Below the pieces are notes generated by a model. The model was not told the origin of the DNA. It was given only the letters and a program-made list of their open reading frames with translations, and made no database searches. Made by a program: the position numbers and the translations under genes. A DNA stretch of 64,000 nt from a virus: positions 30,962 to 94,961 of IMG/VR virus record IMGVR_UViG_3300049139_000178; one strand, given 5' to 3'. Positions 18,977 to 36,218 of this stretch are shown piece by piece; within the stretch, counting starts at the first letter, position 1, and the number at the start of each line of letters is the position of its first letter.

Positions 18977-19231
18977 ATGGACAGCATGACGGGCTACATC
19001 GACACCTTGTGCGGCCACATCGTGGATCTTCACGATAGGTATGAGTTGTCGCCTGCGTTCCACTCACGTACTGGGACGGACCTTCAGATCCGGTTGCAGT
19101 TCCTCGGGGAACTTACCGGGCTGCGTCGTGCCCTTGCCATCGCGCTGGGGGAAGACCCGGAGCAGGAGTGCGACATCGAGGGCGCGGCGGACACGTACGT
19201 CCGCGAGTGGCGTGAGAAGCACAAGCGCTGA
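18977..19231 (+). CDS. hypothetical protein in a single-gene cassette
   Basis: Promoter, AAGGAA RBS, ORF, then hairpin at about 19251-19283. Confidence 0.65.
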   Translation: MDSMTGYIDTLCGHIVDLHDRYELSPAFHSRTGTDLQIRLQFLGELTGLRRALAIALGEDPEQECDIEGAADTYVREWREKHKR

Positions 19232-19331
19232 TACCGGACCCTCACCCACTAGAACCCCGGCGCCCTTCCGGTCCGGGGCTCCGCCGATGCTCCGGAAAGC
19301 AACGGCCGCAGCTCCACCGACAATGACCCCC

Positions 19332-20693
19332 ATGGTGGACCGGAAGCTGAGCCGCGCGGCGGCCGAACGGCTGCTGATGCACGCGCGCACGCTGACCGAG
19401 CCGCGCTGGACTCCGCTGCCCCACCAGGTCCCGCCCGAGGGCGACTGGTACGGCTGGTTGCTGCTCGCGGGCCGTGGCGCCGGCAAGACAGACGCCTGCG
19501 CGCGGTACGTCCACGAGCACGTCATGGGCCCGCCGTGCCTACCGGGTCCCACCCCGCACTGGATCGGCATCATCGCGCCCACCCTCGGCGACGCGGCCAC
19601 GTCCTGCTACGCCGGTCCGTCCGGACTCCGGGTGCACAGCCCCGAGGCTCGGATGATGACCGTCCAGGGCGGCACGGTCATCCGCTGGCCCAACGGCTCC
19701 GAGGCGAAGCTGTTCGGCGCCGACAGCCCCGGCAGCGTCGAGCGCCTGCGGTCCGGCGGTAACCGCTGCCTCTCGTGGTTGGAAGAGCTGGCGGCCTGGC
19801 GCTACCTGGACGACACCTGGGACCAAATGCGCTTCGGCCTGCGCACTGGTCCCCGGCCGCACTGGGTGGCGTCCACCACGCCGAAGCCCCGGGCGCTGAT
19901 CAAGAAACTCGCGTCCGGCGGAGTCGAGAACGTGGTGCGCACCCGGGCGTCCATGTACGACAACCCCCACCTGCCCGAGGACATCAAGGCCGCGCTGGAG
20001 GACGCATACGGCAGTACGCAGATCGGCCGCCAGGAGCTGCACGCCGAGATCATCGACCAGGACGAGAACGCGCTGTGGACTCGCGACACGATCGACGCCC
20101 ACCGACTGCGCCCGGCGGACCTCCCGGACCTCGCGCGGATCTCCGTCGGCGTAGACCCCTCCGGCGGCCGGGGCGAGCAGGGCATCGTCGTCGTGGGCAA
20201 GGCTATGCAGGAGCACGTCCGAACCGACGGCCGCCCGGCGCAGCTCGCCCACGGCTACGTCCTCGCCGACCGGACGTGCCACCTTTCCCCGGACGGCTGG
20301 GGCCGGCGTGCGGTTCAGGCGGCCGTCGACTACGACGCGGACGATATCTGCTGTGAAGTGAATTTTGGCGGGGACATGGCCGTCAACACGATCCGGGCGG
20401 CGGCCGACGCGATGGGCGTGCGCATCCCGATCCGCACCGTGCGCGCCACGCGGGGGAAGAAGGTGCGCGCGGAGCCGGTGTCGGCCCTGTCCGAGCAGGG
20501 CCGCTGGCACATGGTGGGGGAGTTCCCCGAGCTGGAGGACCAGATGTGCACCTGGTACGACGAGCTGGACTGGAGCCCCGACCGGCTGGACGCGATGGTG
20601 TGGCCGGCCTGGCACCAGCGGATCGTGAAACCGACAATGACCGGCACGACGTCGTCCAAGGGCCTGGCCACCGCTGCGCGGACCATCGGATGA
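19332..20693 (+). CDS. terL: terminase large subunit
   Basis: LAGRGAGKT (Walker A), WLEELA (Walker B), STTPK, GVDPS and SPDRLDAMVW (RNase H-like nuclease). Start may be 19323. Confidence 0.92.
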   Translation: MVDRKLSRAAAERLLMHARTLTEPRWTPLPHQVPPEGDWYGWLLLAGRGAGKTDACARYVHEHVMGPPCLPGPTPHWIGIIAPTLGDAATSCYAGPSGLRVHSPEARMMTVQGGTVIRWPNGSEAKLFGADSPGSVERLRSGGNRCLSWLEELAAWRYLDDTWDQMRFGLRTGPRPHWVASTTPKPRALIKKLASGGVENVVRTRASMYDNPHLPEDIKAALEDAYGSTQIGRQELHAEIIDQDENALWTRDTIDAHRLRPADLPDLARISVGVDPSGGRGEQGIVVVGKAMQEHVRTDGRPAQLAHGYVLADRTCHLSPDGWGRRAVQAAVDYDADDICCEVNFGGDMAVNTIRAAADAMGVRIPIRTVRATRGKKVRAEPVSALSEQGRWHMVGEFPELEDQMCTWYDELDWSPDRLDAMVWPAWHQRIVKPTMTGTTSSKGLATAARTIG

Positions 20694-21752: not shown

Positions 21753-21860
21753 ACGCAGCCGTTGACCACCCACCCTGAAGCGCGAAAGGAGGATCCACTA
21801 TGTGCCCCACGTGCCACGGACGAGATGGCCAGCACCACGTCCAGTGCCCCCAGTTCTGAC

Positions 21861-21904
21861 CACGACGAAGCCCCGGCGCCCTCGCGGCCCGGGGCTTCGT
21901 CGTG
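21861..21904. terminator. GAAGCCCCGG-family hairpin terminator
   Basis: CACGACGAAGCCCCGG...CCGGGGCTTCGTCGTG perfect 16-bp arms. Confidence 0.75.
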
Positions 21905-21967
21905 CCCCGAGATGGTGAATCGGCGGATCTGCCCTACCCTGCCCGGGTCTCTTCCTCGGGAGGAATC

Positions 21968-22333
21968 ATGGGCAAGGTGTACGGGCGGGAACCGGCCGTG
22001 TGGCTGGCGGCCGTCGGAGCGGTGTGGCAGATCCTCAGCGCGTTCGGCCTCGGGTTCGACCCGCAGCTCCAGTCCATCATCACCGCCATCGTCGCGGCCG
22101 TGCTCGGCATCATCGTCGCCGTGCAGGTAGGTGACGGCATCATCGCGGCCCTGAACGGCCTCGTGGTCGCGGGCGTCTCCCTCACCGCGTACTTCGGGTT
22201 CGACTGGGACGCCGAGACGCAGGCCAAGGTCGTCGGCGCCGTCATGCTGATCGTCGCGTGGCTGTTCACCCGGCCGAACGTCACCGCGCCGCAGCCCGCC
22301 ACCGTTTCCCCTCCAGGCAAGCTCGTCGCTTGA
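21968..22333 (+). CDS. multi-TM membrane protein, holin-like
   Basis: YGREPAVW...RPNVT with four hydrophobic segments; GGAGG RBS. Confidence 0.65.
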   Translation: MGKVYGREPAVWLAAVGAVWQILSAFGLGFDPQLQSIITAIVAAVLGIIVAVQVGDGIIAALNGLVVAGVSLTAYFGFDWDAETQAKVVGAVMLIVAWLFTRPNVTAPQPATVSPPGKLVA

Positions 22334-24914: not shown

Positions 24915-24961
24915 CACGACGAAGCCCCGGAGTCACGGGACTCCGGGGCTTCGTCGTGTCA
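24912..24961. terminator. bidirectional terminator with 23-bp perfect arms
   Basis: TGACACGACGAAGCCCCGGAGTC-ACGG-GACTCCGGGGCTTCGTCGTGTCA; the arms include both convergent stop codons. Confidence 0.85.
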
Positions 24962-26044
24962 CAGGAACCGGTCGACCAGGCCCTCATACACCGCCACGGC
25001 CGCCGCCGCGTGCGTGCGCTTGAGCGCCTCGTCGTCCCGGCGCCGGATGTACCGCATGGTCGTCGCCACCTGGCTGTGGTCGGCGAACCGTCGGATGTCG
25101 TCGGGCTTCACACCCTGGTCGTACATGTGGGTGAGCTTGCTCGCCCGCAGGACGTGTGGGGTGAGGTCCCGGCCGGGCAGTACGCCGGCCGCGCGGCCCA
25201 GGCGGTTCAGCAGCCGGTCCACCGCGTGCCGGTCCATCGGCCGATCGTCGTCATCGAGCAGCAGCGGCCCGGAGGTCCGGCCCTGCCAGCACACGGCCCC
25301 GAGTTCGCACAGCTTCGGAGGCAGGGTGAACTTCCGGCCCTTGCCGCCCTTGCGGGTCAGGTCCAGTTTGCACTCCCCGCCGGACGGCTTCATGTGCTGC
25401 ATCCCGGCCGCGCAGCACTCCGAGACGCGGCCGGCCAGCGTGTAGATGAGCACCGGCACGAGGGCCTGCCGGGGCGTGGCCGCCTGCTCCACCACGGCCT
25501 GGAACTCAGGCACTTCGAGAATCGGCGTCATGGCCGTCTCGTCGTGCGGGTCGATCACCGGCCGGTCGTACCGGGTGATGGGGTTGATGATCTCCAGCCG
25601 GGTGCGGAACTTGGTGTACTCGATCAGCGAAGTCAGCGACGACGCCAGGCGGTTGACCCGGCGGGGCCCGAGGCCGATGTCCGTTGTCCAGGCCCGCCAG
25701 GCCGGGATGACGTCGGAGGTGATCGCCCCGAGGTAGAAGGGCTCGGTGCCGACCAGCTCCCGAGCGGCCCTCGCCCAGTGGCGGACGTCGTCGGCGTACT
25801 CGCGCCGGGTGCCGTCGCTGGTGAGCCGCTCGGAGTTCAGCCACCCCACCACGTGCTCGAACGTCTCCGGCGCGCACAGCTCGTGCAGGAGGTCCAGCCG
25901 GTGGACGCGCGGTCCGAGCCGGCGGTTCTTTGGGTCGCGCGGGGCGACCGTGCCCAGTTTCTCGCGCAGGCCCAGCATGGTGCGCAGCGCCACGTTGCCG
26001 TCGGCCGAGATCGTGTCGGCCCCTGCCGCCGTCATGATCGTCAT
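24959..26044 (-). CDS. tyrosine recombinase (integrase/XerC-like)
   Basis: RVSE, RKGGK, HVLR, HSQVATTMRY catalytic R-K-H-R-H-Y set. Confidence 0.92.
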   Translation of the reverse strand: MTIMTAAGADTISADGNVALRTMLGLREKLGTVAPRDPKNRRLGPRVHRLDLLHELCAPETFEHVVGWLNSERLTSDGTRREYADDVRHWARAARELVGTEPFYLGAITSDVIPAWRAWTTDIGLGPRRVNRLASSLTSLIEYTKFRTRLEIINPITRYDRPVIDPHDETAMTPILEVPEFQAVVEQAATPRQALVPVLIYTLAGRVSECCAAGMQHMKPSGGECKLDLTRKGGKGRKFTLPPKLCELGAVCWQGRTSGPLLLDDDDRPMDRHAVDRLLNRLGRAAGVLPGRDLTPHVLRASKLTHMYDQGVKPDDIRRFADHSQVATTMRYIRRRDDEALKRTHAAAAVAVYEGLVDRFL

Positions 26045-26333
26045 GGCAGATGAGCCTATCCCTGCGGCCCCTGGCCCGTCTGCACCCAGGGGTGGCGGGC
26101 TGTCCTCCTTTGGCCGTGACGCCTCAGGTGAGCAGGGGCCGCGCCTCGGTGATATGTCCGATCCGTGGGAGCCATGGCAGTCACGTGCCGTCGGACTCGC
26201 TCACACGAGGAAAACGGGCCTGGGTCCAGTCTGGCACACAGGATGTATCGGGGCGGCGACGTGCTCAAAACACACGTTTTGCGCTTCGCCCAGAGCGATT
26301 CTGCGGCAGACGGGTTCCGTGGCATCCTCCGGG

Positions 26334-28130: not shown

Positions 28131-28511
28131 TCACACGGACCAGTGCCGGCCACCCGCCGCACCGAAGGCACCGACGTACACCCGGTGCGTGTAGTCGCCG
28201 GACTGCCACCGTGTCCCCGCCGCGCCCGCGATGAAGCGATGGCACGTACGTTCGATAATACGGTGCAGCTCGGGGAACTGGAGGCCCAGGAGCAGGCCCG
28301 ACATCTCCACCCCTTCCGGGGCCGGCAGGGCCGCCGCGTCTTCGTCGCCGGTCGCCTCGTGCACGGCGGCCCGGATAGCCAGGACGCGGACCGCGTCGGC
28401 CATGCTCCCGGCGACGGCAGGCATCTCCGGGTCGGCCATCCACTGTCCGTGGATCTCCATCGCCCGCCGGGCGGTCGTCTCGACGTCGGACAGAGTGCTG
28501 GTGGCGGCCAT
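28131..28511 (-). CDS. hypothetical protein
   Basis: GGAGGA RBS; divergent from the GntR gene. Confidence 0.65.
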   Translation of the reverse strand: MAATSTLSDVETTARRAMEIHGQWMADPEMPAVAGSMADAVRVLAIRAAVHEATGDEDAAALPAPEGVEMSGLLLGLQFPELHRIIERTCHRFIAGAAGTRWQSGDYTHRVYVGAFGAAGGRHWSV

Positions 28512-28561
28512 GCGGTCCTCCGTGTGTGATTTATCGAATTCACGGGAATGCCCCTGTGAGA

Positions 28562-28593
28562 CTTCCTACAGGAACTGCCCCTCCTGTAGGAAG
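28562..28593. promoter_or_regulatory. 12-bp perfect inverted repeat in the divergent GntR promoter region
   Basis: CTTCCTACAGGA-8 nt-TCCTGTAGGAAG. Confidence 0.55.
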
Positions 28594-28652
28594 CTAAGGC
28601 ACGGCTGGGGTACCGTCAACCACATCCGATAGGAAGACCCGAGGAGATACCC

Positions 28653-29330
28653 ATGGCAGGGACCGTCGCACGCATGGTTTCGTACCTGAGGGCCCGTATT
28701 GACCTGGGAACACTGAAGCCGGGCGACCGACTGCCGCCGACGGCGGCCCTGATGAAGCAATTCATGATCAGCGACAACGCGGTGTACCGGGGGATCGCGC
28801 TCTTGAAGGCTGAGGGCTACGTCACCTCCCAGCAGGGCAAGGGAGTGTTCGTTGCCGACCGGCGTCGGCTCATCGTCGGTGAGAAGCGTATCCAGGGCAT
28901 TACGCAGGCCGGTGAGACGATCAACCACAAGCGGAGCGTCCGCGTGCAGGCGCCTGACTGGGTCGCCGAGTTCCTCGGGGAGGGCGAGTGCGTGAACCGC
29001 GTCCGTACGGTGATCCGTGGGGGCGCGGTCGTGCAGGCGTCGCAGTCGTGGGTGCACCTCGCGGTTGCCGACGTCGTCCCCGAGATCGACGAGCCCCGGG
29101 CCTGTGACCCCACGTGGCAGGCCGTCTATCAGGACCGTTCGGGCAACCCGGTGAAGGTAGCGTCCAAAACGGGCATCGTCCGCACCACGACGGACGAGGA
29201 GCGCGAGGAGTTCGGCCTGGACGCCGACCGGGAGGTGCTGGTCGTCCGCAGCGTCTACGTCACCGGCAACACGGTGATCGGCGTCGGCGAGGCCGCGTAT
29301 GCGCCGGATAACCCTCTGATCATGTCCTGA
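28653..29330 (+). CDS. GntR-family regulator with UTRA-like C-terminal domain
   Basis: LKPGDRLPPTAALMKQFMIS...L..EGYV.SQQGKGVFV winged HTH. Confidence 0.88.
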   Translation: MAGTVARMVSYLRARIDLGTLKPGDRLPPTAALMKQFMISDNAVYRGIALLKAEGYVTSQQGKGVFVADRRRLIVGEKRIQGITQAGETINHKRSVRVQAPDWVAEFLGEGECVNRVRTVIRGGAVVQASQSWVHLAVADVVPEIDEPRACDPTWQAVYQDRSGNPVKVASKTGIVRTTTDEEREEFGLDADREVLVVRSVYVTGNTVIGVGEAAYAPDNPLIMS

Positions 29331-29379
29331 TCAAGCGAGCAGCGCACCGAAAACCCGACCAAGGAATGAGGAAACGATC

Positions 29380-29616
29380 ATGGCCGTGAACAAGCTGACT
29401 CCGGGAATGATCGACGTGGACGTCCCCGGCTGGGAACTGGAAGGCGAAGTCCGCGACTGCCACGAGACGTTCAGCGAGACGCCCGCGCGGGACGTGGAGA
29501 AGGCCAAGCGCTGGGCCAACCAGCGCATCGGCCGCCGCCTCGTCTGGCGCAAGGTAGTGGAGCGGGGGTTCGAGCACTACGAGGCCAACGCCGTCGACGA
29601 CCCCTACGACCGTTGA
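29380..29616 (+). CDS. hypothetical protein
   Basis: GACCAAGGAATGAGGAA leader; hairpin at about 29631-29667. Confidence 0.65.
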   Translation: MAVNKLTPGMIDVDVPGWELEGEVRDCHETFSETPARDVEKAKRWANQRIGRRLVWRKVVERGFEHYEANAVDDPYDR

Positions 29617-29677
29617 CCCTTCCTCAGCCGTGAACCCCGGAGCCCCTCACGCTCCGGGGTTTCTTCGTACCTGAGGG

Positions 29678-29712
29678 TTGCGTGCATCCCACAACTATGG
29701 TTTAATTAATCC
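29678..29712 (+). promoter_or_regulatory. conserved promoter/operator copy driving the RiPP operon
   Basis: TTGCGT-12 nt-TATGGTTTAATTAATCC. Confidence 0.7.
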
Positions 29713-29824
29713 ATGATCGACGACCCTTGGGAGCTGGTCTCCCCGGGCGCGGATCAGGAGTACGGAACCAGGAACATAGGAACGGGCCGTCAGAGCGCGG
29801 CCCCCACATCCGAAGGATGGCATC

Positions 29825-30097
29825 GTGACCGCCACGAGCACCCCCTTTGCACTCCTCGCTGAGGTCCCGGCCCCGCCCGCCGACCGAACCCCGGAGTTCA
29901 CGTTCGACCCCTTCCGCCAGCTCAACGTGACGACGGCTGGGGACGCCGTGATCGACGTCGCCGACGTCCAGTCCATGACGATGACCCACAACAGCAAGGG
30001 ATTCAAGAAGGACGACGACTTCGCCCACGCCCCGCACGCCCTGCTCGGGCCGACCATGACCCACAACTCCTCCGGGCACAAGAAGGACGACGACTGA
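29825..30097 (+). CDS. graspetide (ATP-grasp RiPP) precursor with two core repeats
   Basis: Leader PFAL...FDPFRQLNV...G; cores TMTHNSKGFKKDDD and TMTHNSSGHKKDDD; stop overlaps the ATP-grasp start. Confidence 0.85.
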   Translation: MTATSTPFALLAEVPAPPADRTPEFTFDPFRQLNVTTAGDAVIDVADVQSMTMTHNSKGFKKDDDFAHAPHALLGPTMTHNSSGHKKDDD

Positions 30098-31104
30098 TGC
30101 CGCTCCCACCCACCGTGCTTGTCGTCACCGCGCCTGACGACCTCAGCGCCGATCTCGTGATACGGCAGATCCAGGAACGCGGCGTCACCATCCACCGCCT
30201 GAACCCTGCTGACCTCGCGCGTCCGGGGGCCCTGAGGATGACCGGCGTCTCAGACGGAGAGCCGTTACGGTTCACCATCGAAGACAACCACCGCTCCACG
30301 CTCTCGCAGTCGGTTGTCTCCGTTTTCTGGTGGCACCCGGGCCTGCCCGGTGGGTGGGAGCAGCAGGAGTCCCGGGCCATCCTGGAGGACTTCCTGTACG
30401 GCCTTGACGGGACGCTGTGGGTGAACCACCCGCTCCGGGCACAGGCTGCCCGGCCCGGCCCACGGCAACTGCACGTCGCTTCGTCTCTCGGCCTCCGGAC
30501 TCCACCCGCACTGTTCACCAACGACCCCGACCAGGCCGCTGCGTTCGCCGCCGAACAAGGCGGCAAGGTGGTGTGCAAGACCCTCACCGCACACCCGGAC
30601 CGGTTCGTCCAGGCCCGGCTGGTGTCCTCCGGGGAGATCCTGGCCAACGCAGATCACGTGCGGCAGAGCGTGTGTTACTTCCAGCGGCCTGTGGACAAGA
30701 CGCACGACATCCGACTGACGGTGATCGGCGACCGGATGTTCCCGTGCAAGGTCACCGCCGGCGGTGCGTTCGACTGGAGGGCGGCACCGGAGGACGACCT
30801 GGGTTTTGAGGCTGTGGGCGCCAGCCTGCCGCTGACGCAGAAAGTCCGGAAACTCATGCAGACGCTGGGGCTGGAGTACGCCGCCCTGGACTTCGCCGTC
30901 GACCAGGGCGGCACGTGGTGGTTCCTGGAAGCGAACCCGGCGGGCCAGTTCGGTTTCGTGGAGACGTCTACAGGGATGGTCATTTCGCGGGCCATCGCCG
31001 ACCACCTCGTTCAAACGGCCCTGGCCACCCACGTCTACACTCCCGGAGGCGGCCACCGAGCATATTCGGGGACGCCTTGGCAACGGGGGTCCGCCGGCGT
31101 GTAG
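30097..31104 (+). CDS. ATP-grasp peptide maturase (RimK/MvdD-like graspetide synthetase)
   Basis: DLSADLVI, WVNHP, GLRTP...TNDP, VCKTL, FQRPVDK..DIRLTVIG, DWR, AALDF, FLEANPAGQFGF; TTA codon at 30265. Confidence 0.9.
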   Translation: MPLPPTVLVVTAPDDLSADLVIRQIQERGVTIHRLNPADLARPGALRMTGVSDGEPLRFTIEDNHRSTLSQSVVSVFWWHPGLPGGWEQQESRAILEDFLYGLDGTLWVNHPLRAQAARPGPRQLHVASSLGLRTPPALFTNDPDQAAAFAAEQGGKVVCKTLTAHPDRFVQARLVSSGEILANADHVRQSVCYFQRPVDKTHDIRLTVIGDRMFPCKVTAGGAFDWRAAPEDDLGFEAVGASLPLTQKVRKLMQTLGLEYAALDFAVDQGGTWWFLEANPAGQFGFVETSTGMVISRAIADHLVQTALATHVYTPGGGHRAYSGTPWQRGSAGV

Positions 31105-31128
31105 AGCATCGGACCGGAACACCCCACA

Positions 31129-31162
31129 GGCCCCGGAGCATCCCCGCTCCGGGGCCTTCGTG
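31129..31162 (+). terminator. hairpin terminator closing the RiPP operon
   Basis: GGCCCCGGAGC...GCTCCGGGGCCTTCG. Confidence 0.65.
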
Positions 31163-31366
31163 CGTGAGTAGGCGAAAACGACCTTCCGACGTACAGTGCC
31201 CACGTTTCCCCGACTTCCTCGGGTCAGGGTGCACAGGGGTGCGTGAGCCCCGCCGGTGTGGTGGTCGGCGGGGCTCACGCGCGGGCAGGACCCCGTTTGC
31301 CGTGAAAACGGCTATTCGGATGATCGCGGCTACCATGCCCTCCGATCCGAACCGGGGAGGTATGCC

Positions 31367-33220
31367 GTGCCGTGGTACGACGCATTCCGGGGGCGCGTGG
31401 CTCGGGAGCCCGCTCCGCTGCCTCAGCTGCCTGAAGGGCTGACGGCCGCCGCTGCTCCGCCGCCCGGACCGGAGACCAAGTTCTTGCGCCGCACCGAGGC
31501 CTGGCAGGAAGAGGTCTGGCGCTTCCACGACACGCTCGGCGAGTTCAATTACGGCGTCGGGTGGTTGGCCAACATGCTTTCCCGGGTGCGCCTGCGGGCG
31601 GGCCGCCTGAAGCCGGGCTCCGATGAACCGGACATCGTCACCTCCGGCACAGCCGCCGACCTCATGATGCTGTTCGGCGGGGGAGTCGCCGGCCAGTCGC
31701 AGCTCATGCGACGCCTCACGGTTCAGCTCGCGCTGCCCGGCGAGGGCTATCTGGTCGGCGAGCAGGACGGCAAAGTCGAGCGCTGGCAGGTCCGGTCCGT
31801 GGACGAAATCCGCGTGCAGTCCGGCAAGTACCAGGTGATGGACGAGGAGTCGGCCACCACCGGCCAGGACTGGCGTGACCTCGCCGAGGACCACCACGTC
31901 GTCCGCGTCTGGCGACCGCATGACCGCTACTTCCACATGGCAGACTCCCCGGCGCGCAGTGCTCGCGAGATCATGCGTGAGCTGGAGCTGGTCAACCGGA
32001 AGATCGCAGCCGAGTACTTGTCCCGGCTGGCCTCTGCCGGCCTCCTTCTGCTCCCTGACGAGCTTTCGTTCCCGGTTCGCGAGGAGTTCGCCAACGACCC
32101 GGACAACGCCAACCCGCTGATGTCCGAGTGGATCGAGATCGCCGCGACGGCGATTCAGAACCCCGGCACCGCCTCGGCCGTGGTGCCCATCCCGCTGGTC
32201 GGCCCGGCCGAGGCCATCGAGAAAGTGAAACACGTCGACTTCACGTTGAAGATTGACGAGAAGATCATCGAGAAGCGGGACAGCGCGATCAAGCGACTGG
32301 CAACCAAGTTGGACATGCCGGCCGACGTGCTGCTGGGCATGGGCGACGTCAACCACTGGGGGCAGTGGCAGATCGAGGAATCCGGGCTCAAGACGCACAT
32401 CGCCCCCGTCGCGGAACTGATCTGCGACGCCCTCACGCGCGGCTACCTCCAGCCCCGGCTGGAAGCGTCCGGAGAGGACCCGGCCGCGTGGGTCGTCTGG
32501 TACGACATGAGCGAGCTGGCTCTGAGCCCGGACCGCAGCGGGAACGCCACCCTGGCCTACGACCGGCTGGAGCTGTCCGGCGAGGCGTACCGCCGGGAGC
32601 TGGGGTTCGACGAGGACGACGCACCGGACGACGAAGAGCTGCGGGTACAGTCCCTCAAGTCCATCATCCGCACCCTGCCGTCCGGCGCCGCGTCGGCCCT
32701 GGCGCAGCTGCTCGGCGAGGACGTCCCGCAGATCGTCCCGGTCTCCCCGCAGGATCCCGGCACAGCCGAAGCCGTGCAGCAGGGCGACACGCCTCCGCCG
32801 GCGAACCAGCAGCCGACCGAGGAGGGCGCGGGCCGCGCGGCGCCGCCGAGCGATGAACCCTCGCCTACACAGGGCCGGACCGGGCCACCCTCGCGAGACC
32901 AGCAGGCTACGGCTGAGCGAGCGCAACGGCTCGTACAGCAGGCCCGGACGCAGCACATGCTCCGCGTCGGCGCGACGAACCGGTGGGACCTGCTGCACCC
33001 CGGCATCTGCGGAGAGCACGAGTACTCGTGCCCGTTCACACACGCAGTCGTCGCGGCAGCTCCCTCCGTACGGCCCGGCAGCAGCGGGACGTACCTCTGC
33101 CACCTGGACGCTTTCGGCCGCCTGGTCCTGGACGGTCGTAGCCCGTACGCGGACACCACGGCCATGATCTCCACCTCGCTCGTTCCAAGGGCGGTGAACG
33201 GCCATGCCCCCGCGCACTGA
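31367..33220 (+). CDS. portal protein
   Basis: WQEEVW.F....GEF.Y, LALPGEGYL, RVWRPH...ADSP, SRLASAGLL, NHWGQW; first gene of the head module; GGAGG RBS. Confidence 0.82.
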   Translation: MPWYDAFRGRVAREPAPLPQLPEGLTAAAAPPPGPETKFLRRTEAWQEEVWRFHDTLGEFNYGVGWLANMLSRVRLRAGRLKPGSDEPDIVTSGTAADLMMLFGGGVAGQSQLMRRLTVQLALPGEGYLVGEQDGKVERWQVRSVDEIRVQSGKYQVMDEESATTGQDWRDLAEDHHVVRVWRPHDRYFHMADSPARSAREIMRELELVNRKIAAEYLSRLASAGLLLLPDELSFPVREEFANDPDNANPLMSEWIEIAATAIQNPGTASAVVPIPLVGPAEAIEKVKHVDFTLKIDEKIIEKRDSAIKRLATKLDMPADVLLGMGDVNHWGQWQIEESGLKTHIAPVAELICDALTRGYLQPRLEASGEDPAAWVVWYDMSELALSPDRSGNATLAYDRLELSGEAYRRELGFDEDDAPDDEELRVQSLKSIIRTLPSGAASALAQLLGEDVPQIVPVSPQDPGTAEAVQQGDTPPPANQQPTEEGAGRAAPPSDEPSPTQGRTGPPSRDQQATAERAQRLVQQARTQHMLRVGATNRWDLLHPGICGEHEYSCPFTHAVVAAAPSVRPGSSGTYLCHLDAFGRLVLDGRSPYADTTAMISTSLVPRAVNGHAPAH

Positions 33221-36218
33221 CCACCAGCACCCGCCGGTCGTGACGGCCGCCGCCGACGGCTCGCACACGCAGGGCTGCATGATCGCCCTCATGCCGACGG
33301 CCGAGGACGCCGAACGCCTCGCGATACCCGGCGGCGAGCCGGCCGAGGAGCTGCACTGCACGCTGTACTACCTGGGCAAGACGGACGCGCACCCGGCCGA
33401 TGCGCGCACGGCCCTGGTCGACGAACTGACCGCGCTCGCACAGGACATGCCGCTGGTCACGGCCAAAGTATTCGGGGCCGCGCACTGGAACGGGGACAGC
33501 GACGAGCCGTCTTGGGTGTGGTCCGTGGGTGACGGTCCGGACGAGGCCGCCGTGACCGAGTATGGGACGGGCCTGGAGGCGTACCGCAGCCTGGCGGCTC
33601 ACGCACTGCTGCGGTCCGGGACGTCCACGCTGATTCCCAAGCCGCACAGCCCCTGGGTCGCCCATATATGCGCCGCGTACAGCGACGACCCCGCGTTCCT
33701 CCCCGAGCTGGAGCAGCGGCTGGGCGAGGTGATGTTCGACCGGATCCGGGTCAGCTTCGGGGACGAGGACCACGACATCCCGCTCACCGGCGACGCGGTG
33801 ACGGCCGCCGCCGGGCCGCTGCGCCGGGAGCCGACCGAGCTGGAGCTGGCCTCGCGCGTCGACTTCGCCTCCGTGCATCAGGAGTGGGAAGCCGCGACGA
33901 ACCGGGCGATGCAGTCGCTGAGGTCGGTCACGGCCGCCTGGCGCCTGGACCTGCGGCAGCAGATCACCCGCGACCTTGCCGACGACAGGCTGGACTCCAT
34001 CCCCGAGCTGACCCTGGACAGCCGGGCCGCCACGGCCACACTGCTCACCCTCATGGAGGAGTACGCGGTCAAAGCGGGCCGGGCGTGCCAGCGCGAGGCA
34101 GAGCAGCAGGGCGTCGCCGTGCCGGACTGGTCCCTGCCCGAGGGCGACGAGGACGCGGTCACCGCTGCGCTCACCGGCCGGCGCCTGCTGGCCTCTGTTG
34201 CAGAGCTGGCCAGTGACCTGATGTCCGGTGCGCTGCTCACGGCCGCGAAGCGCAAGCTTTCCGGGCTGCTGCGCTCCAGCCGACCGACGGACCAGATCGC
34301 GGCCGAAGTAGACCGGGAACTGGCCACGGTCGACGACACCTCGGTACGGGCCTCCATCGGCCAGGCAATGACGGCTGCTCAGAATGCCGGGCGGAACGCT
34401 GTGATGGAAGCGGCTCCACCCGCGTCCAGCTACGTGGCCAGCGAGATTCTCGACCGCCGCACCTGCGAGCCGTGCAAGGCCATCGACGGCCGCACCTTCA
34501 CCACTCTGGACGCCGCCGTGGCGGAGTACCCGGTCATGGGCTACCGCGATTGCACCGGCGCCCGGTACGGCAACGCCTGCCGGGGCTTCCTCATCGCCGT
34601 CTGGCAGGACGTACGCAGCCCGGCGACCACGGCAAGTGCCGACACCCACCCGGCCGCTCAGGACGCGGCGGAAGGAGATCAGTTCATGACGACCGAAGCA
34701 GCGACCGAAGCGACTGAAGAACTGGGTAAGGGGGAACCGAACCCCGGCACTCCGAAGGACAAGCGTCTGAAAAAGAACCAGACGGCGGCCGAAGAGAAGC
34801 GGTGCCCGCCCGGCATGGAGCTGGACGAGGAGTCCGGCGAGTGCGTGCCGGAGTCCGACGAGGAAGAGGCAGCCGGGGGCACGCGGACGCTGCGCGGTGA
34901 GCACGGCCCGGAGACCCTGGCCCACGGTGCGGCGGCCGACGCCGAGAAGGTGGCAGGCCCGCCGGTCAGCGAGATGGGCGGCGGGGAGACCGCGCCGTGG
35001 CGCGGGCCGCTCACGGTGGAGGGCATCGAGACCGGTGACGGCCGGGAGTTCAAGCCCGAGGCGTTGACGTGGGCGGACTTGCCGCTGCCGTTGCGCTGGA
35101 ACAAGGAGGACTCGCACGGCGGAGAGCCGCACACCGTCGCGGTCAACGTCGGCCGCATCGACAAGGTGTGGCGGGAGGACGGAGGCCTGGTCATGGGCGA
35201 GGGCGTGCTGGACCTGTCCACCGAGGACGGCCGCACCGTCCACGGCAAGATCAAAGGCCAGTTCCTGCGCGGCGTGTCGGTGGACGTCGACTCGATCAAG
35301 GACGCCGACATGGAACTGGTGTGGCCGTCCGACCCGGAAGAGGACGGCGAGGGCTCCCCGTTCGACATGCTGTTCGCGTCGCCGGAGAAGGTGGTGTTTC
35401 ACCGGGGCCGTATCCGGGCCGCGACGCTCGTGGACATTCCGGCGTTCGCCGAGGCGTACATCGCCCTGCTGGACGAGGACGGCGCGGTCGTCGCTGGCGG
35501 GGAGCCGATCGGCGCGGTGCGCGAGACGCGGGTCCGTACGGCCTACGCGCGTACGGTGGAGGCGCCGGTGCGCCCGCCGGCCGGCTGGTTCGCCGACCCG
35601 AAGCTGTCTGTGCCGACGGGGATCACGGTCACGCCGGAGGGCCGCGTGTACGGGCACGCCGCGCTGTGGGGCACGTGCCACATCGGTCAGGAGGGTGTGT
35701 GCGTCACCCCGCCGCACGAGGAGTCCCACCCGTACTACATGACCGGCAACGTCTGGACCGAGGACGGCGCGTCCGTCTCCGTCGGTCAGATCACCGTCGG
35801 CACCGGGCACGCGCCACTGTCCTACGGCTACCGCGCGGCGGCCGACCACTACGACAACACCGGCGCGGCCGTGGCAGACGTCGCAGTGGGCAACGACGCG
35901 CACGGCATCTGGGTCGCCGGGTCCATCCGTCCCGGCACCTCTGAGTCGCGCATCCACGAACTGCGCGCGGCCGGCCAGGTCTCCGGCGACTGGCGCCGCA
36001 TCGGCGGGAGCCTGCGCCTGGTCGGCCTGCTCGCGGTGAACGTCCCCGGCTTCCCCGTCCCCAAGCTGAAGACGCACCTCACGTCCGGCCAGCAGCTCGC
36101 CCTCGTCGCGGCGGGTATCCCGCAGCTCTCCGAGGGCCTCACCGAGGACGAGCTGGACCAGTGGGCCTACCGGCGCGTCCTCACAGCCCTGTCCCGCAAA
36201 GTCCACGGAGAGGAGTGA
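33204..36218 (+). CDS. 2H phosphoesterase - MuF minor head - capsid maturation protease fusion
   Basis: LHCTL.YLG and WVAHIC (2H motifs); SEILDRRTCEPC..IDG...CRG (MuF); EGIETGDGR...VGRID...SVD (protease-like); position between portal and capsid. Confidence 0.75.
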   Translation: MPPRTDHQHPPVVTAAADGSHTQGCMIALMPTAEDAERLAIPGGEPAEELHCTLYYLGKTDAHPADARTALVDELTALAQDMPLVTAKVFGAAHWNGDSDEPSWVWSVGDGPDEAAVTEYGTGLEAYRSLAAHALLRSGTSTLIPKPHSPWVAHICAAYSDDPAFLPELEQRLGEVMFDRIRVSFGDEDHDIPLTGDAVTAAAGPLRREPTELELASRVDFASVHQEWEAATNRAMQSLRSVTAAWRLDLRQQITRDLADDRLDSIPELTLDSRAATATLLTLMEEYAVKAGRACQREAEQQGVAVPDWSLPEGDEDAVTAALTGRRLLASVAELASDLMSGALLTAAKRKLSGLLRSSRPTDQIAAEVDRELATVDDTSVRASIGQAMTAAQNAGRNAVMEAAPPASSYVASEILDRRTCEPCKAIDGRTFTTLDAAVAEYPVMGYRDCTGARYGNACRGFLIAVWQDVRSPATTASADTHPAAQDAAEGDQFMTTEAATEATEELGKGEPNPGTPKDKRLKKNQTAAEEKRCPPGMELDEESGECVPESDEEEAAGGTRTLRGEHGPETLAHGAAADAEKVAGPPVSEMGGGETAPWRGPLTVEGIETGDGREFKPEALTWADLPLPLRWNKEDSHGGEPHTVAVNVGRIDKVWREDGGLVMGEGVLDLSTEDGRTVHGKIKGQFLRGVSVDVDSIKDADMELVWPSDPEEDGEGSPFDMLFASPEKVVFHRGRIRAATLVDIPAFAEAYIALLDEDGAVVAGGEPIGAVRETRVRTAYARTVEAPVRPPAGWFADPKLSVPTGITVTPEGRVYGHAALWGTCHIGQEGVCVTPPHEESHPYYMTGNVWTEDGASVSVGQITVGTGHAPLSYGYRAAADHYDNTGAAVADVAVGNDAHGIWVAGSIRPGTSESRIHELRAAGQVSGDWRRIGGSLRLVGLLAVNVPGFPVPKLKTHLTSGQQLALVAAGIPQLSEGLTEDELDQWAYRRVLTALSRKVHGEE

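Follow-up and report, generated by a model that had tools for sequence, protein, structure and literature searches.

A probable two-gene graspetide cassette with a duplicated core, carried as swappable cargo by Streptomyces phage-plasmids

Graspetides are a large class of ribosomally synthesised peptides that are modified after translation (RiPPs), with more than 20,000 predicted members, whose natural roles outside protease inhibition are mostly unknown. Their ATP-grasp synthetases dock on the leader of a precursor peptide and phosphorylate an acidic side chain, which is then attacked by a donor residue (PMC13097080; for PsnB, bioRxiv 10.1101/2021.03.09.434688). In PsnB, Arg213 and the DFR233-235 loop recognise the ring-forming carboxylate and ATP (bioRxiv 10.1101/2021.03.09.434688). 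Two of the groups defined in a 2026 RODEO survey matter most here. Group 11, the prunipeptin type, comprises 3,324 clusters marked by the Pfam family PF14404 (co-occurrence 105%) and consists of precursor and ligase only, with no methyltransferase; group 13, the graspimiditides, is almost always accompanied by a TIGR04188 methyltransferase (PMC13097080). The graspimiditide loop contains a conserved Asp-Xaa site, usually Asp-Gly, at which aspartimidylation takes place (bioRxiv 10.1101/2023.06.21.545981). Plesiocin and the microviridins are serine-protease inhibitors, and the potency of plesiocin rises with the number of cyclised motifs (PMC13097080). Here we describe a compact locus of two genes (29632-31156, + strand) within a 64,000-nucleotide window, the whole stretch of DNA analysed, which spans positions 30,962 to 94,961 of IMG/VR record IMGVR_UViG_3300049139_000178. 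The carrier is a temperate, siphovirus-like Streptomyces phage-plasmid of about 95 kb (94,961 bp). The locus is probably a functional, self-contained graspetide cassette that travels as swappable phage-plasmid cargo and whose product may bind a protease.

The initial annotation of the window had proposed a regulon promoter, a 90-residue precursor with a PFAL-type leader and two near-identical cores, a translationally coupled ATP-grasp ligase and a terminator, all just upstream of the portal gene and with no methyltransferase, protease or exporter adjacent. This layout is borne out, with the coordinates of both cores exact. The precursor gene (29825-30097, + strand) encodes 90 amino acids, begins with GTG preceded 8 nt upstream by GAAGGA, and has a G+C content of 0.92 at third codon positions. 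Residues 1-51 form the leader (29825-29977), with PFALL and DRTP.F.YD..RQLNV motifs. They are followed by core 1 (residues 52-65, TMTHNSKGFKKDDD, 29978-30019), the linker FAHAPHALLGP (30020-30052) and, at the C-terminus, core 2 (residues 77-90, TMTHNSSGHKKDDD, 30053-30094). At the DNA level the cores are a 44-nt direct repeat, 80% identical, with the copies 75 nt apart. There are 23 homologues, with identities of 48-99%, and all of them carry the leader motifs PFALL, P.PP.DRTP.F.YD and RQLNV..G.AVVDV; A9, L10, L11, P15, R21, P23, D28, Q32, N34 and G39 are invariant across the 23 sequences. Two cores of the form [T/S]-x-T-H-N-x-x-G-x-K-K-D-D-D and a linker ending in G-P (G75 and P76 invariant, the remainder variable) are present in all but one, the single-core relative P0112; in the chromosomal copy L011 the first core has decayed. 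Since the homologues keep both leader and cores, the precursor reading frame is not a chance one.

The pattern of conservation separates a fixed frame from a free loop. In core 1, T/S1, T3, H4, N5, G8, K10, K11 and D12-14 show little or no variation, position 1 of a core being only ever Thr or Ser, and in core 2 T79, H80, N81, K86, D88 and D89 are invariant (23/23). Positions 2, 6, 7 and 9 vary, with different patterns in the two copies: at position 9, 20 of 22 sequences have an aromatic residue in core 1, whereas core 2 has H, L or R there. The resulting loops, NxKG[F/W/Y]KK in core 1 and N[S/A]x[G/E][H/L/R]KK in core 2, are both rich in Lys. Because the variable positions differ between them, the two cores are maintained as separate units. 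The ratio of nonsynonymous to synonymous substitution rates lies at 0.25-0.8 in the precursor, compared with 0.12 in the ligase, as is usual where a scaffold is constrained and its loop positions are free to change. A six-frame translation of the window contains no core motifs elsewhere, and the cassette genes have no frameshifts or stops.

The ligase gene (30097-31104, + strand, 335 amino acids) starts within the precursor stop, the two overlapping by one base in TGATG (30095-30099); in relatives the genes are separated by 3-nt gaps. Its best model matches are TIGR04187 (E = 7e-74), MvdC (4e-39) and MvdD (9e-29), although the scores for TIGR04187 and PF21068 stay below the curated cut-offs. 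Searched against the PDB, a profile of the ligase clade finds graspetide macrocyclases only: PruB (9bou) is best (E = 4e-50), followed by MdnB, AMdnB, MdnC, CdnC and PsnB. PruB is also the closest solved relative, at 32-33% identity; literature searches on 9BOU/PruB returned nothing. An AlphaFold2 (AF2) model of the ligase with a mean predicted local distance difference test score (pLDDT) of 91.5 has AMdnB, PruB and MdnC as its best Foldseek matches (template-modelling scores 0.75-0.88), and RimK and LysX fall far behind all graspetide macrocyclases both by sequence and by fold. The initial annotation had named a catalytically dead ligase as one of the results that would overturn its proposal. 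The enzyme found here has its catalytic residues intact: ten columns do not vary among 58 homologues with identities as low as 29%, eight of them being K161, Q196, R206, D226, R228, D265, E278 and N280. K161, Q196, D265, E278 and N280 are the nucleotide- and Mg-binding residues of the ATP-grasp fold, and R206, D226 and R228 are specific to graspetide enzymes. W227 is invariant within an 18-member clade, and the 20-residue spacing from R206 to D226-W227-R228 equals that from Arg213 to DFR233-235 in PsnB. Judged by these residues, the ligase is a bona fide graspetide macrocyclase and looks fully active.

Within the family, the enzyme occupies a branch of its own. In a quick maximum-likelihood tree with Shimodaira-Hasegawa-like approximate likelihood ratio support, arbitrarily rooted and with no resolved order among its deep branches, full support goes to a group of all 18 clade members, set on a long branch, and to a subclade of the phage-plasmid ligases inside it. 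The nearest neighbours of the clade are ordinary Streptomyces MvdC/D-type ligases, and identity to ligases outside it reaches at most about 40%. Three genomes (Streptomyces or actinobacterial) that carry chromosomal copies of the clade ligase, those of L010-L012, also keep 2-4 ordinary MvdC/D-type ligases each, at 35-38% identity, so the clade ligase is an additional paralogue and not a replacement.

How does the cassette relate to the described groups? The leader matches PF14404 (Strep_pep) below threshold (E = 0.0036; 17.8 bits against a cut-off of 25), over residues 7-46 and profile positions 3-43 of 63, so that the match ends before the core; the relatives P0112 and P0097 likewise fall under the cut-off. 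True PF14404 precursors, such as those on viral contigs L039 and L069, score 64 bits over positions 3-63 and end in THNDDD. The match to TIGR04186 is also below its curated cut-off (E = 0.027). In composition the cassette is a minimal cluster of the group 11 kind, precursor plus ligase with no tailoring enzyme. The features of group 13 are missing: no PIMT-type O-methyltransferase lies beside the ligase, and the core loop, HNxxGxKK, has no Asp ahead of the DDD triad and hence no Asp-Xaa or Asp-Gly site. PF01135/PCMT-type methyltransferases were found in none of four related phage genomes (the control was found in 14 of 14 genomes), and tblastn with an outgroup methyltransferase found none in L001-L012. 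The clade loci all lack one, whereas in 13 outgroup loci the ligase is followed at once by a PCMT-type methyltransferase. The initial annotation had associated this type of leader with an aspartimide-forming methyltransferase. The PFAL-type leader is indeed present, but the methyltransferase link belongs to group 13, with its RPFG leaders. As group 11 clusters consist of precursor and ligase only, the missing methyltransferase is normal and not an anomaly. By sequence, the cassette is best placed as a divergent relative of group 11 that lies outside the sequence criteria of both groups.

Upstream of the cassette, a terminator-like hairpin (29632-29662, + strand) has a 12-bp GC stem followed by the U-rich UUUCUUCGU, with a minimum free energy of -33.7 kcal/mol (z = -5.3, equalled by 0 of 200 shuffles); it would close the preceding 78-aa gene and insulate the cassette. 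The box promoter (29675-29712, + strand) combines GGGTTG with a -35-like TTGCGT (29678-29683), a 17-nt spacer and a -10-like TTTAAT (29701-29706) lying within the palindrome TTTAATTAA; the order is GGGTTGCGT, 15 nt, TATGGTTTAATTAATCC. The hexamers were assigned by eye as TTGnnn-N17-TTTAAT, and on this reading of the sequence the box is a housekeeping-type promoter. A sigma-70 scanner called no promoter at the locus, because it demands A at position 2 of the -10 hexamer. With at most one mismatch, the palindrome occurs nine times in the window, which is 69% G+C, against 0.07 sites expected by chance (6919, 16583, 18936, 24472, 26357, 27648, 29701, 57542(-) and 62582(-)); at eight of these sites GGGTTG stands a constant distance away, on the same strand as the gene that follows. 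Boxes of this type also stand ahead of the gene for the large terminase (18990-20690), that for a triple-HTH regulator and several small ones, which makes "regulon promoter" a fair description. The repeated form can be written GGGTTG-N(about 15)-(T/C)ATG(G/A)TTTAATTAA; most copies continue into a conserved 5' leader ending in GACCAAGGAAAGAAGGAAC ahead of the ATG, and the palindrome would supply a -10 element on either strand.

The same cassette is driven by different promoters in different relatives. The box precedes it in L001 and L002 as well, whereas L003, L004 and the chromosomal copies have another upstream region with a TAGGCT -10-like element, so that promoters of the box type and of the TAGGCT type have been exchanged between cassette copies. 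The 5' untranslated leader (29713-29824, + strand, about 112 nt) contains three GGAAC repeats and the ribosome-binding site GAAGGA, and is conserved only in the window, L001 and L002. The repeats (GGAACCAGGAACATAGGAAC, 29764-29783) are kept in these three and absent where the promoter differs. A riboswitch-like role for this leader was considered and dropped, since its fold is not significant (z = -0.48) and an Rfam scan of 28500-31500 returned a chance-level match only, with no family for the leader. Downstream of the ligase, a second terminator-like hairpin (31129-31156, + strand) has an 11-bp GC stem, GGCCCCGGAGC / GCUCCGGGGCC, followed by UUCGUG, with a minimum free energy of -35.2 kcal/mol (z = -2.6). 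The stem core CCCCGGAGC / GCTCCGGGG is common to the hairpins on either side of the cassette, which might represent a terminator that recurs in the element, or else mark the edges of a module. The portal reading frame (PHROG 776, E = 1e-132) opens at about 31256, some 100 bp past the second hairpin. A perfect 15-bp inverted repeat (31241-31280, GCGTGAGCCCCGCCG / CGGCGGGGCTCACGC, 10-nt loop) overlaps this first possible start; the true start is probably further downstream, as the PHROG match begins at residue 56.

The window encodes TerL, a holin, an integrase, the portal, a MuF-protease fusion, the major capsid protein, a head-tail adaptor, the major tail protein, a tape measure and an endolysin, so that virion, packaging, lysis and lysogeny modules of a tailed temperate phage or phage-plasmid lie on one replicon. 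Six related IMG/VR contigs (64-96 kb, L037 among them) have ligases 79-93% identical to this one, and in the five whose flanks were compared (L001-L005) the cassette sits between the integrase/regulator region and the portal. Terminal repeats are present in two of four relatives checked, and CheckV gives 100% for three of the four and 93% for the other; the complete relatives measure 92-96 kb. Two carrier contigs come from Streptomyces isolates (NRRL S-455 and S. africanus), and another relative has been deposited as a Streptomyces plasmid. The linear plasmid pS1D4-14.2 is syntenic and shares the genes for integrase, portal, MuF-protease and capsid, but its slot is filled not by the cassette but by genes for an XRE regulator and a PH-domain protein together with a hypothetical gene. 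The immediate neighbours of the cassette, here a GntR regulator, the 78-aa reading frame and the portal, also vary: the GntR gene may be present or absent, and in some relatives a gene is inserted before the portal. In L002 (7138-7938) and L004 (7206-7934) this is a GP88-family gene (PF17338, E = 8e-58) and in L001 a 70-aa box-driven gene, each between ligase and portal, which marks the pre-portal slot as a cargo site. These comparisons of gene order identify the cassette as swappable accessory cargo just upstream of the portal.

In Streptomyces chromosomes, copies with 60-64% identity occupy islands of low G+C content next to XRE-DUF5753, NUDIX, TnpB, restriction-modification methylase and CHAP-domain genes. 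No phage structural genes were found within 8 kb on either side of these copies, and Terminase_6N is absent from their contigs, with matches only on other contigs. Elsewhere in the window, the large terminase (18990-20690) stands about 10 kb upstream of the portal (31256), an unusual split of the packaging module; between the two lie a holin-like gene (21860-22330), an exonuclease-like gene, the integrase (24959-26200, minus strand) and the regulator/cargo region. Beyond the portal, 33204-36215 encodes a 1004-aa fusion whose N-terminal part (residues 12-195) matches RNA ligase PHROGs, whose middle is MuF-like and whose C-terminal region is that of a head maturation protease.

In the proposed pathway, the precursor would be expressed from the box-type promoter of the element, and the translationally coupled ligase would dock on the conserved leader (PFALL ... 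F.YD..RQLNV). In each core, the Asp carboxylates of the DDD triad, held by the conserved Arg, would be phosphorylated with ATP, and the hydroxyls of [T/S]1 and T3 (or a Lys amine) would displace the phosphate to give omega-ester macrolactones. Conservation suggests that [T/S]1 and T3 serve as the donors, with the DDD triad supplying the acceptors. A turn at Gly8 would produce a symmetric hairpin with T3 opposite D12 and T1 opposite D14, that is, two nested rings per core in a ring-within-ring hairpin around the xG turn, so that each precursor could lose up to four water molecules. The product would display two different Lys-rich loops. Equal spacing and ring-within-ring closure are known from fuscimiditide and amycolimiditide (bioRxiv 10.1101/2023.06.21.545981) and from plesiocin (PMC13097080). 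On the strength of conservation and these precedents, the nested Thr-Asp topology has an even chance of being correct. As to the role, plesiocin and the microviridins serve as models for a peptide that would bind or inhibit a protease to the benefit of the carrier cell or of the element. A protease-binding role is favoured since no other activity has been established for graspetides of the hairpin and cage types, and since plesiocin gains potency with additional motifs; whether as binder or inhibitor, the assignment is a tentative one, drawn from analogy.

Several observations weigh against this account. The ring pattern is read from conservation and from the equal-spacing rule of fuscimiditide and amycolimiditide. 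The AF2 model of the free precursor is of low confidence (core pLDDT about 50-56), and the weak hairpin that it gives core 1 is one residue off the symmetric register. A simple Thr-Asp hairpin does not account for the invariant His-Asn and Lys-Lys pairs. For the group 13 peptides fuscimiditide, amycolimiditide and albusimiditide, the literature consulted gave no bioactivity. Furthermore, no signal peptide was found in the precursor and no leader protease or exporter is present, so that an extracellular inhibitor would need host factors. A separate possibility concerns the invariant loop Asn, followed in different sequences by Ser, His, Asn, Asp, Tyr or Ala, which might cyclise spontaneously to a succinimide; if true, this would be a methyltransferase-independent counterpart of the graspimiditide aspartimide.

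The lack of an exporter or signal peptide would equally suit a peptide made by the same chemistry but acting inside the infected or lysogenic cell, in counter-defence or host takeover, by inhibiting a host protease or a protease-dependent defence. The initial annotation had suggested an intracellular peptide of this kind, or one active in lysis-lysogeny signalling. The cassette is under the element's own box promoter, of the type shared with the terminase and other phage genes, and lies in a variable cargo slot beside the lysogeny/regulatory region, both of which are consistent with such a use. On the other side, no target is known, and PADLOC, whose library holds defence and not anti-defence proteins, has no match in the cassette and its four neighbours. 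The copies in chromosomal islands, with a host-like promoter and no phage structural gene nearby, fit a trait that benefits the cell better than an intracellular role for the phage, which makes this explanation unlikely. The modified peptide could alternatively be a signal for the adjacent ligand-binding regulator, in a lysis-lysogeny or cell-density circuit of the arbitrium or RRNPP kind. A ligand-binding transcription factor does stand upstream of the cassette in every context read: GntR with UTRA in the window, L001, L002 and L004, an XRE-HTH protein with tetratricopeptide repeats (TPR) in L003/L005 and the chromosomal L011, and XRE-DUF5753 in L010. The HTH+TPR regulator is directly upstream in both a phage (L003, 4327-5640) and a chromosomal copy (L011, 5591-6799). 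This recurrence is suggestive, but the regulators come from mutually unrelated families, and even the HTH+TPR proteins of L003 and L011 have no detectable homology (E = 2.7), for which reason a co-travelling three-gene module was rejected. In addition, another gene and a strong hairpin separate the GntR gene from the cassette, GntR homologues occur on small Streptomyces plasmids that show nothing matching the cassette, secretion signal and processing protease are both missing, and XRE-DUF5753 pairs also accompany ordinary group 11 and 13 clusters (PMC13097080). A signalling role is accordingly very improbable. Taken over both forms, inhibitor of a host protease or protease-dependent defence or ligand of the upstream regulator, the phage's own intracellular use of the peptide is a minor prospect; if true, it would be the first RiPP shown in phage-host conflict or phage decision-making.

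A more radical doubt is whether this is a working RiPP system at all, rather than an ATP-grasp enzyme acting on another substrate, such as RimK-like tailing of a ribosomal or virion protein, or a decaying passenger. The only PHROG match of the ligase is to "ribosomal protein S6 glutaminyl transferase" (E = 5e-14), and its TIGR04187 and PF21068 scores, like the PF14404 score of the leader, are all under the curated cut-offs. Yet RimK and LysX rank far below the graspetide macrocyclases, and the DWR loop and the equivalent of Arg213 are invariant. The precursor is conserved, coupled to the ligase and constrained in 23 relatives, no other protein of the window holds the core motifs, and neither gene is interrupted. 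Taken together, these points leave this possibility barely credible, and the reading of the locus as a functional graspetide cassette with a protease-binding product, carried as cargo, is the one preferred here.

A DNA search of INPHARED with the cassette gave no match, and a protein search returned two distant records only. In Leptospira phage LalZ_80412 (KF114876.1, 2365-3439), a gene for a 37-aa peptide with TKTDTIREVDDD and TKTEENKEQDE motifs overlaps a "RimK-like ATP-grasp" gene; in a gut phage scaffold (MT835913.1, 1904-3433), a 184-aa precursor with five T.T...QEG.DDD-type repeats lies directly before an MvdC/D-like ligase. Both are graspetide-like pairs that had gone unrecognised in deposited phage records. 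In IMG/VR, about 33 further viral contigs (L039-L072) have MvdC/D-like ligases at 20-37% identity, 14 of them with a PCMT-type methyltransferase downstream, as in graspimiditides; several of these ligase matches are at contig ends and may be host flank. Literature searches found no description of phage-borne graspetide clusters. At the 15% threshold for reporting used in the 2026 survey, portal, terminase and capsid families are missing from its co-occurrence tables for every group (PMC13097080 supplement), the core motif was not found in the supplementary text of the same paper, and a survey of phage-borne RiPPs and bacteriocins leaves ATP-grasp, microviridin and graspetide clusters unmentioned (bioRxiv 10.1101/2020.10.01.322628). 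Phage-borne RiPPs of this kind are being missed because standard annotation labels both genes hypothetical. What the present locus adds is a distinct ligase clade and a new duplicated core that travel as a promoter-swapped module in a family of Streptomyces phage-plasmids. With two genes and one 90-aa substrate, it offers a small and tractable system for asking how a RiPP benefits a phage or a lysogen, and it would provide a new ring scaffold with two naturally diversified loops.

Sublancin, carried on SPbeta, is an example of a phage-borne RiPP. The cassette resembles other phage-borne RiPP and bacteriocin clusters in being accessory cargo of temperate phages, but those are mostly bacteriocins with immunity and export genes. 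Plesiocin (group 2) and the multi-core microviridins share with it the use of one ligase for several repeated cores in a single precursor, and plesiocin, a serine-protease inhibitor, has the same ring-within-ring hairpin topology as is proposed here. Its leader is unrelated, however, its core is of the TTxxxxEE type, PsnB is only about 21% identical to the ligase, and group 2 clusters often include exporters. The graspimiditides (fuscimiditide ThfA/B/M, amycolimiditide and albusimiditide; TIGR04186/04187/04188) are nearer: TIGR04187 is also the best NCBIfam model for the present ligase, the leader has its weak TIGR04186 match, graspimiditide-type enzymes make up several of the ligases recovered at 29-37% identity, and the stem-loop logic of equally spaced donors and acceptors is the one suggested for this core. 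They differ in their RPFG leader motif, where the present leader has PFAL, as well as in their methyltransferase and loop Asp.

The closest likeness is to the prunipeptin type. PruA/PruB, like the cassette, is a pair of genes with no methyltransferase; PF14404 leaders are of the same PFAL...YD..QQ(L/V)NV type, and the THN and the C-terminal DDD of PF14404 precursors are both kept. Between THN and DDD, however, six residues (xxGxKK) are inserted here, and the Thr/Ser-rich stretch of the PF14404 core is cut to [T/S]xT. The core is moreover duplicated with two distinct loops, the ligase clade sits on its long, fully supported branch, and the carriers are phage-plasmids. The chemistry is of a known kind, but no account of the core, of the enzyme branch or of phages as its carriers was found in the literature searched.

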